Virus record (IMG/VR): IMGVR_UViG_3300005573_000026
Coordinates: 1 to 38,175 of that record
Reading direction: 5' to 3' (one strand)
From: a virus
Length of the DNA: 38,175 nt
The notes below the pieces were generated by a model. It saw only the letters and a program-made list of their open reading frames with translations. It searched no databases and was not told the origin of the DNA. This document shows positions 489-764 of the stretch, one piece after another (the first letter of the stretch is position 1; each line of letters starts with the position of its first letter). The position numbers and the translations under genes were made by a program.

Positions 489-518
489 CTGGCTTGATGT
501 AATAGTATAAACTTATTC
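489..518. repeat. Imperfect direct repeat R1 flanking the gyrA-like fragment
   Basis: ctggcttgatgtaatagtataaacttattc matches 681..710 at 25 of 30 positions. The offset is exactly 192 nt. Confidence 0.85.
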
Positions 519-691
519 AGGAAATAATTGTTGAAGAGCTACGAAAGATAAAAGAAGAATATGCCTATGAGAGAAGAACTGAAATTCGGGAGAAAGAAAT
601 AACCGATATCCAGCCTGAGGACCTGATTAAAAAAGAGAATGTAGTCATCATTCACACTGCTTCTGTGTATATCAAACGAACTGGCTTGATA
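506..691 (+). pseudogene. gyrA: Internal fragment of a DNA gyrase subunit A gene with no start codon
   Basis: Translation gives (Y)KLIQEIIVEELRKIKEEYAYERRTEIREKEITDIQPEDLIKKENVVIIHTASVYIKRTGLI*. This carries the GyrA signature RRTEI...EDLI..E.VV....GY(I/V)KR found at the junction of the N-terminal domain and the C-terminal beta-pinwheel. The frame is closed by stops at 500..505, and no in-frame ATG or RBS is present. Confidence 0.7.
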
Positions 692-710
692 TGATAGCAT
701 AAACTTAGTT
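681..710. repeat. Imperfect direct repeat R2, which contains a minus-strand extended -10 element
   Basis: The reverse complement of 689..701 is TATGCTATCATAT. This is identical to 4471..4483 in the early promoter. Confidence 0.85.
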
Positions 711-764
711 AATGATCTAAGTATGAGTTTTATCAGAAATATCTTCTGTTACAATTAGTATAGT

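Follow-up and report, generated by a model that had tools for sequence, protein, structure and literature searches.

A fragment of host-type gyrA between direct repeats in a non-coding region of a hot-spring phage genome

How does a piece of gyrA, a gene for an essential bacterial enzyme, come to lie between two direct repeats in the non-coding DNA of a phage, and does it serve any purpose there? We addressed this question in the 38,175-nt stretch of DNA that makes up the IMG/VR record IMGVR_UViG_3300005573_000026 (referred to below as the window). The cassette is probably the decaying relic of one illegitimate-recombination event, a template switch at microhomologies, rather than a gene or a device. 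The evidence for this reading comes from the identity and composition of the fragment, from the exact structure of its junctions, and from a comparison with related phages, and it has to be weighed chiefly against the alternative that the fragment gives rise to an antisense RNA.

Setting and identity of the fragment

The genome is that of a tailed phage and forms a complete circle of 38,054 bp, bases 1-121 of the window recurring at 38055-38175, with a GC content of 36%. The phage carries both the small and the large terminase subunits, and a P22-type portal is found in its relatives. Pfam and PHROG scans of 27 ORFs, a set that left out the large structural ORFs, detected no integrase, recombinase or reverse transcriptase. 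Transcription is organised by five near-identical promoters of the form TTGAC(A/T)-N17-TGCTAT(A/C)AT, and the gyrA cassette lies in a non-coding region bounded by a promoter on one side and a terminator on the other:

198-1138: non-coding region holding the gyrA cassette, 941 nt.
204..232, minus strand: consensus late promoter, TTGACA-N17-TATAAT with TG, which drives the leftward structural operon.
1072..1106, no strand assigned: bidirectional terminator hairpin, which ends the leftward operon 3932..1139 and forms the edge of the 941-nt region.
232-204 (minus), 3966-3938 (minus), 4453-4481 (plus), 4733-4761 (plus) and 37516-37488 (minus): the five clear promoters, in each of which a TTGAC(A/T) box, perfect or nearly so, is present at 17 nt.

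The first gene of the late promoter begins at 197 and runs across the origin. The cassette is situated approximately 260-500 nt upstream of this promoter, on the same transcriptional strand, and all of its neighbouring transcription units are on the minus strand. The same non-coding region also contains iterons and palindromes at approximately 760-1010 as well as a conserved GC-rich block at 283-362.

The reading frame at 506..691 is free of stop codons and translates as YKLIQEIIVEELRKIKEEYAYERRTEIREKEITDIQPEDLIKKENVVIIHTASVYIKRTGLI. The preliminary description had recognised it as an internal GyrA segment that has no start codon and is preceded directly by two stops, and the present analysis bears out both statements: phmmer against PDB aligned the fragment with residues 498-551 of E. 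coli GyrA (E=5.5e-5), and it is 88% identical in amino acids and 93.4% in nucleotides to a metagenomic gyrA of the donor type described below. With the full host GyrA as the query, tblastn placed the fragment at residues 459-518 of 806 and found it to be the sole GyrA-like stretch in the window. A Pfam scan of the fragment matched no family, and the 62-aa fragment gave no usable matches in a protein search by word index. The extent of the homology and the stops that enclose it are as follows:

507..689, plus strand: stretch homologous to host gyrA, 183 nt, codons 459-518 of 806, differing from the nearest host allele at 12 positions.
516..680, plus strand: gyrA-only insert between the repeats, 165 nt.
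500..505, plus strand: in-frame stop codons TAA TAG, directly 5' of the fragment and within the centre of repeat R1.
692..697, plus strand: in-frame stop codons TGA TAG, directly 3' of the fragment and within the centre of repeat R2.

The upstream pair is the one reported earlier, and the downstream pair is added here. There is no ATG in the frame of the fragment, nor is any ORF of at least 30 aa listed in that frame, and the fragment is non-coding, having no usable start codon. It also lacks what would define a complete gyrA gene, namely a start codon with an RBS, a PF00521 domain with the catalytic Tyr, and PF03989 repeats. A 53-aa ORF on the minus strand (539-700) has no RBS and was dismissed as apparently spurious.

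The donor was sought by scanning species-representative genomes and JGI metagenomes. The GyrA of the donor type, 806 aa long, comes from an uncultured hot-spring bacterium, and the gene for it lies directly 3' of gyrB in an ordinary gyrB-gyrA operon and encodes PF00521 and PF03989 domains. The best allele (L004, corresponding to protein P0112) agrees with the phage at 171 of 183 nt over 507-689, with no indels. At least 24 contigs, drawn from many geothermal metagenomes, carry a gene of this type, and one of the assemblies concerned is an ENA assembly whose accession is adjacent to that of the phage (ERZ27247226 vs ERZ27247228). According to the literature, the samples come from geothermal springs. 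Judged by sequence, the source of the fragment is probably the gyrA of the phage's host. It had been proposed that the fragment is the remnant of a captured or ancestral topoisomerase gene; the notion of a captured and decaying remnant is supported, but the gene it derives from is the host's gyrA rather than a topoisomerase of phage ancestry.

Eleven host loci, taken from different metagenomes, all depart from the phage copy at the same 12 sites, and for this reason the changes would have arisen in the phage copy or, alternatively, in an unsampled donor. All but one of the 12 changes are in the direction of GC to AT, and the GC content is 35.5% in the fragment, 36.0% in the phage, 41% in the corresponding host stretch and 45.8% in the host locus as a whole. 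Seven of the changes are non-synonymous and five are synonymous, where 68% non-synonymous would be expected without selection, and six of the seven amino-acid changes occur at residues that are invariant among 14 host GyrAs; a change of G to V in the conserved SGYIKR motif is one example. The survival of an open frame through 12 such changes is unremarkable (P=0.38-0.54). The fragment appears to be under no constraint at the protein level, the signal of purifying selection being absent, and the phage-specific GC-to-AT changes, many of them at invariant residues, indicate that the gyrA copy is probably decaying. Neutrality cannot be proved from a single lineage, and a function at the RNA level would not leave a signature at the protein level. 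DGR-type adenine mutagenesis was rejected as a source of the changes, which run from GC to AT and are not A-specific, and no reverse transcriptase was found.

Junctions and proposed origin

The insert is enclosed by two copies of a sequence that we refer to as R:

489..515, plus strand: repeat R1, CTGGCTTGA-TGTAATAGT-ATAAACTTA.
681..707, plus strand: repeat R2, CTGGCTTGA-TATGATAGC-ATAAACTTA.

Direct repeats had previously been noted at 489-518 and 681-710, identical at 25 of 30 positions and 192 nt apart, and we confirmed them. Their core is 27 nt long, with a spacing of 192 nt and 24 of 27 positions identical, and the three differences between R1 and R2 are all confined to the central 9 nt. 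No comparable pair of repeats was found in 100 shuffles, and the 27-nt R is present in the genome at these two sites only. The earlier picture of a fragment flanked by repeats is correct in that the repeats are present, but the outer 9 nt of each are gyrA sequence themselves. R1 opens with 9 nt that match the 3' end of the gyrA piece and closes with the 9 nt with which that piece begins, and the 9 nt in between are not gyrA sequence. The gyrA homology at 507-689 thus reaches 9 nt into each repeat and then stops exactly, which means that the repeats are not independent of the insert.

The host gene itself reads GGAAGCG / ATAAACTTA TTCAGG at the start of the fragment and CGAA CTGGCTTGA / GTTCC at its end (the slash marks the fragment boundary). 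Both junction 9-mers, ATAAACTTA on the left and CTGGCTTGA on the right, are identical to the host at 9 of 9 positions, and the extra copies of the 9-mers at 489-497 and 699-707 adjoin sequence that is not gyrA. Since the probability of two 9-nt junction matches arising by chance is approximately 4^-18, the 9-mers are best understood as mechanistic microhomologies. R1 and R2 have diverged from each other (3/27, 11%) roughly twice as far as the insert has from the host (6.6%), which fits the expectation for a duplication and a capture that took place as one event.

These junctions are real, because the identical region was recovered in independent assemblies: the 941-nt region is the same base for base in the MEGAHIT (k141, ENA) and JGI assemblies and, as far as it was reached, in the Logan assembly. 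The Logan contig ends at window position 536, which corresponds to the last 31-mer containing the phage-specific base 566, and this end immediately precedes a 36-nt run (530-565) identical to host gyrA. The break may therefore reflect a branch in the assembly graph that arose because the sample also contained reads of host gyrA.

The comparison with related phages that had been suggested was carried out, and the cassette is absent from both of the informative relatives. These two contigs (L010 and L033) originate from another spring, are 83% identical to the phage in the amino acid sequence of the late gene, and have the late promoter, the GC-rich block and the iterons in common with it; the late promoter is also kept in a further relative, L032. 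Neither L010 nor L033 contains gyrA or a duplicated R, and unrelated AACAAGCTTA-type repeats occupy the position of the cassette in both. The absence from both relatives suggests that the cassette is specific to the lineage of the phage. An allele with a single exact R, as it would have been before the insertion, was not found in L010 or L033, which are too diverged at that spot: the candidate orthologue of R matches at 16 of 27 nt, and the gapless alignment of the flank is marginal (21/52, shuffle p=0.058). When the relatives were used as an outgroup to polarise the differences between R1 and R2, the signal was too weak to use. The closest relative by TerL (L015, 91%) stops just short of the intergenic region, and the distant TerL relatives L016-L021 (52-58%) contain no GyrA-like DNA. 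Outside these contigs, blastn against INPHARED with window positions 1-1130 gave zero matches, and scans of IMG/VR with the fragment, late gene 1, a 310-aa ORF, TerL and a conserved 17-mer retrieved no relatives.

The locus displays the marks of a template switch: an insert collinear with the donor, identities at both junctions, and duplicated recipient sequence. We infer from these the following course of events: (i) during replication in the host, a growing DNA end would have copied the phage R (CTGGCTTGA-N9-ATAAACTTA, 27 nt); (ii) this end would then have slipped onto host gyrA at the matching 9-mer ATAAACTTA; (iii) 165 nt of gyrA would have been copied; (iv) a second matching 9-mer, CTGGCTTGA, which is the start of R, would have allowed the end to slip back to the phage; and (v) R would have been copied again, resulting in the arrangement R - 165 nt gyrA - R. 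The insert would subsequently have drifted neutrally towards the AT-rich composition of the phage; it would encode nothing, and any RNA produced from it would be a by-product. Such a double template switch is the simplest event that yields the exact layout. The phage has its own means for replication and recombination, with genes for a PrimPol-helicase, a family A DNA polymerase, a Cas4-like PD-(D/E)XK exonuclease and RusA.

Alternative readings of the cassette

The foremost alternative concerns the minus strand of R2, on which the following element is located:

689..701, minus strand: -10-like 13-mer, TATGCTATCATAT (TGC + TATCAT); the -35 position, 714-719, reads TAGATC.

The preliminary description had drawn attention to a 13-nt identity between this strand and the extended -10 of the early promoter, and to a degenerate counterpart in R1. 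Both observations are accurate: TATGCTATCATAT at 689-701 (minus) is the same as 4471-4483 (plus), and R1 reads TATACTATTACAT. The minus strand of R2, TGCTATCAT, moreover fits the TGCTAT(A/C)AT extended -10 of the promoters of this genome. The further wording that the fragment is placed behind a phage promoter element is correct as to the exact -10 match but overstates the case, there being no -35 box: the sequence TAGATC agrees at 3 of 6 positions and was not reported by the promoter scan, and the five clear promoters all have TTGAC(A/T) at 17 nt, which R2 does not. Sites of the form TGCTAT[AC]AT number seven in the genome, only two of which have no -35 box; one site, at 31715, is located inside a gene and apparently occurs by chance. 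A more fitting description of the repeat is a phage sequence that was duplicated, and whose two ends provided the microhomologies used in the capture.

Were the R2 element TGCTATCAT to fire, or were the operon to be read through, the result could be a functional antisense RNA covering codons 459-518 of the host gyrA mRNA, with the duplex cleaved or translation blocked, so that gyrase is lowered during infection. Nucleotide identity to a plausible host gyrA had been named as a check on this idea, low identity being incompatible with base-pairing, and it proved to be high: the complementarity is 93.4% over 183 nt and includes perfect runs of 36, 26, 23, 20 and 18 nt. On the other hand, the target site lies within the coding region and not at the ribosome-binding site, and the fragment is drifting off its target at a neutral-looking rate. 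With regard to the promoter, R2 carries an exact 13-nt copy of the extended -10 of the early promoter, which is unlikely by chance, and the differences between R1 and R2 all fall in the -10-like motif, R2 being the copy that fits the promoter consensus. The location of all three differences in the central 9 nt has P ~0.04 under uniform drift, and this clustering could mean that the R2 motif was maintained or created by selection; as stated above, however, R2 has no TTGAC(A/T) box at -35 and failed the promoter scan.

The organisation of the region bears on the same question. Because the neighbouring units are on the minus strand, RNA resulting from read-through would also be antisense to gyrA, but no terminator-like site is present on the minus strand between 680 and 232, the predicted fold of the RNA is no better than that of shuffled sequence (z=+1.0), and no Rfam family was matched. 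A known RNA family was rejected as a candidate, all sub-threshold Rfam matches being located on the terminator at 1072-1106. The presence of donor-type gyrA in the adjacent ENA accession and the break of the Logan phage contig at a 31-mer common to host gyrA may be counted in favour of an antisense role, and the absence of the cassette from L010 and L033 counts against it. On balance, a functional antisense RNA is unlikely. The more specific proposition, that the captured gyrA piece has been co-opted and that the extended -10 of R2 yields an RNA of approximately 200 nt which is antisense to host gyrA mRNA and knocks down gyrase, we regard as a speculation deserving little credence. If it were true, the virus would use a piece taken from an essential host gene to silence that gene, and antisense would be a new viral way to attack an essential host enzyme.

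The remaining alternatives concern the manner in which the layout was formed. Two R-like elements may have existed beforehand, and a double recombination event at short homologies may have replaced the interval between them with gyrA, no duplication step being needed. The region is indeed rich in short repeated motifs: in L010, the corresponding position is taken up by approximately 140 nt of unrelated repeats, with a ATTAATTAAGTTT box on one side and a AAAAAGTTTATAT box on the other, and the right end of R2 forms a 13-nt inverted repeat with 776-788. However, L033 does not have the upstream box seen in L010, R is found at only these two sites of the genome, and the extent to which R1 and R2 have diverged is what one would expect if the duplication were as old as the insert, all of which makes this course of events quite unlikely.

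Alternatively, a 183-nt piece of gyrA could have been circularised or concatenated with a 9-nt filler, and approximately 1.14 units of the resulting 192-nt tandem inserted. Formally, 489-707 can be described as 1.14 copies of a 192-nt unit composed of 183 nt of gyrA and a 9-nt linker. This scheme would require more steps, both truncations would have to fall exactly 9 nt from the linker, and no tandem array is present; there are also weak indications that ATAAACTTA and its right flank are native to the phage, namely the inverted repeat involving 776-788 and a AAGTTTATA motif in the relatives. We consider it improbable. Both variants are possible, but they are less economical than the template switch.

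The layout could also be taken as a patch of homology, or an attP, that allows integration into the gyrA of the host, as the preliminary description had partly envisaged, or as a CRISPR-like mini-array of repeat, spacer and repeat. The 183 nt of host homology would suit the former and the 27-nt direct repeats around a unique segment the latter. A single crossover into an internal piece would split the essential gyrA, though, and a 183-nt internal fragment would presumably be unable to restore the gene after insertion; the Pfam and PHROG scans of the 27 ORFs revealed no integrase, recombinase or reverse transcriptase either. As for a CRISPR array, the supposed spacer of 165 nt compares with approximately 25-70 nt, the ends of the repeats belong to the gyrA homology, and the only Cas-like gene encodes a stand-alone Cas4-like PD-(D/E)XK nuclease. 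Each of these possibilities is most improbable. Finally, a chimeric joint of phage and host reads at the repeats, which had been raised as a potential objection, is scarcely credible: phage and host have 31-mers in common and one Logan contig ends within the fragment at 536, but three assemblies produced by different assemblers agree on the region, the junction homologies of 9 nt are far below the k of any assembler, and the fragment, with its 12 phage-specific substitutions, is not made of host reads.

Relation to known systems and meaning of the locus

The event, the capture of host DNA, belongs to a known kind. Microhomology-driven template switching (FoSTeS/MMBIR) is an established mechanism (PMC2621351), and illegitimate recombination at short homologies is described as the process by which lambda bio transducing phages arise (Ikeda et al. 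1995, as cited in PMC2621351, ref. 49). As in these systems, the joints between host and phage lie at a few to approximately 13 identical bases and do not involve homology of the RecA type (PMC2621351). The locus also resembles their products in that a segment "derived from elsewhere" is placed between two microhomology junctions, and in the duplication of what lies behind the switch point (PMC2621351). It differs from them in several respects: (i) only 165 nt were transferred, into a non-coding region of a lytic-looking phage; (ii) no functional gene was moved; (iii) no prophage excision was involved; and (iv) the mechanism is deduced from the scar. In eukaryotes, end-joining by polymerases of the theta type (family A) leaves scars that consist of short templated inserts flanked by microhomologies. 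The present insert is likewise copied from another locus with microhomologies, and the phage encodes a family A polymerase of its own; in contrast to those scars, the system is bacterial or viral and the insert is longer than typical, and that the phage polymerase possesses such an activity is conjecture.

With respect to a possible RNA, DicF of the Qin prophage is a prophage-encoded regulatory RNA directed against the essential host gene ftsZ. It is a short, structured, terminated and conserved sRNA that acts through partial complementarity at the ribosome-binding site. Should R2 fire, the phage described here would similarly carry an RNA that pairs with the mRNA of an essential host gene; unlike DicF, this RNA would be a long, unstructured and unterminated complement of an internal coding stretch, absent from relatives and dependent on a putative promoter. 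ToxI is reportedly itself a functional RNA antitoxin, and its phage-borne mimic is said to act in the sense orientation. The pseudo-ToxI repeats of phage PhiTE are described as a case in which a virus imitates a non-coding RNA of a host or plasmid (PMC3594212). Like them, the cassette is a short intergenic sequence that does not code, resembles host DNA and is partly repeated, and such sequences can originate or grow by recombination with the DNA of the host, but a fragment of gyrA coding sequence, in contrast to ToxI, has no known function as RNA. CRISPR mini-arrays borne by viruses, such as Fuxivirus and Chiyouvirus, have been reported from the same kind of hot-spring data (10.1101/2023.08.24.554615). 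The arrangement of repeat, unique segment and repeat in a viral genome is similar, whereas the segment measures 165 nt as opposed to approximately 30-40 nt, the ends of the repeats are part of the segment, and neither a leader nor cas effectors are present.

To conclude, the cassette is most likely an evolutionary scar and a clue to the host rather than a working device. As a scar, it is an unusually legible fossil of the pickup of host DNA, in which the sequence alone reveals both junctions, the microhomologies, the duplicated target and the subsequent decay. As a clue, it provides a sequence-based link to the host for a hot-spring phage that could not otherwise be placed. The lineage indicated is an uncultured bacterial one, and its gyrA is encountered repeatedly across many geothermal metagenomes. 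In practice, the cassette is of use for marking the host and for illustrating the mechanism clearly.

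Circular genome, promoters and probable use of host RNA polymerase

Positions 1-121 of the window are identical to 38055-38175; with this 121-nt assembly overlap counted once, the genome is 38,054 bp long, circular and complete. The first late gene (minus strand) starts at 197, crosses the circular junction and wraps to 37580, and an ORF listing of the linear window gives it only in a truncated 183-aa form; the full product has 223 aa, and its N-terminus, MRKIICILIFSLITLAC, resembles the signal of a lipoprotein and includes a putative lipobox. Five predicted promoters share a near-identical design, TTGAC(A/T)-N17-TGCTAT(A/C)AT:

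232-204, minus strand, promoter
3966-3938, minus strand, promoter
4453-4481, plus strand, promoter
4733-4761, plus strand, promoter
37516-37488, minus strand, promoter

Such sites match the classical sigma-70 consensus and add an extended -10, a design that points to a bacterial host and to host RNA polymerase driving all phage transcription.

Non-coding elements and the leftward operon

The leftward operon, whose first gene has its ATG at 3728, is preceded by a GC-rich leader of about 200 nt (3729-3932, minus strand) that separates this gene from the consensus promoter at 3966-3938 (minus strand); GC elsewhere in the phage is 36%. The leader folds strongly (MFE, -97.6 kcal/mol; z = -2.69) and carries at its 3' end, directly before the RBS, a terminator-like hairpin with a U-run (3781-3756); an Rfam search of the leader matched zero families. 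It is a candidate (i) riboswitch, (ii) attenuator or (iii) small RNA. The same operon contains two genes with HEXXH motifs (HELAHILF and HELGHAFF):

1562-2086, minus strand, HEXXH gene
3183-3728, minus strand, HEXXH gene

One of the two matches Peptidase_M78/IrrE-like, slightly under the Pfam cut-off, and the pair may be paralogous metallopeptidases of the ImmA/IrrE type. Neither a repressor nor an integrase was seen in the phage, the latter in Pfam and PHROG scans of 27 ORFs.

Directly upstream of the late promoter, an 80-nt GC-rich block (283-362) reads CCCCCCTACCTGCCCCC...GGGTGGACAC...CTACAAATTTTTACTAAATTTTC on the minus strand, the plus strand presenting G-tracts. It corresponds to 467-546 of L010, a related phage contig, and likewise occurs in a second one, L033; the block is 87.5% conserved in these relatives, and the AT-rich DNA around it is unalignable. 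A 17-mer query from the block matched only unrelated GC-rich viral contigs.

Repeats also occur in two stretches:

815-898, two 42-nt repeat units
888-983, three 32-nt repeat units
4031-4073 and 4081-4123, two units of about 43 nt (AATTTTCCTACGAYGACRGCGTCGGARTTTTTCGACGACGGCC), spaced 50 nt

The first two sets belong to dense iterons at about 760-1010, where the palindrome AACATGTTAACA is present in at least three copies, and related phages carry similar AACATGTTAAC motifs; the iterons are candidates for a replication origin or for an array bound by a regulator. Each unit of about 43 nt contains a small GC hairpin and, after it, a T-run; a G-rich stretch follows at about 4270-4300, both being upstream of the early promoter. 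These elements may represent tandem terminators or regulator sites between the divergent operons.

Distant relatives (TerL, 53%) likewise have few genes over a long stretch upstream of their late or terminase module: about 1.5 kb of L016 (5734-7278) is without called genes, and its counterpart in L017 (3029-4526) holds three small genes. It may be typical of the family to have a variable non-coding region here.

Host clues and distribution of the group

L007, a Logan contig of the same phage (SRR5248875), ends at window position 536, with the final 31-mer that includes base 566, which is specific to the phage; the 31-mer immediately beyond its end (535-565) is identical to host gyrA. Because the contig stops where its 31-mers become identical to the host gene, a donor-type host is suggested to be present in the same sample as the phage, and captured host fragments appear to break up k=31 assemblies. 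The large terminase gene has homologues in MAGs:

33322-34935, minus strand, TerL (homologues P0008, P0024 and P0088)

These homologues (40-54% identity) fall in MAGs that carry the labels Candidatus Omnitrophica, Bathyarchaeia and Hermodarchaeia, bin labels that are unsuitable as host calls. A wide distribution of this podovirus-like group, which has a P22-type portal and an SU10-type adaptor, follows from these matches, its contigs being binned with very different organisms.
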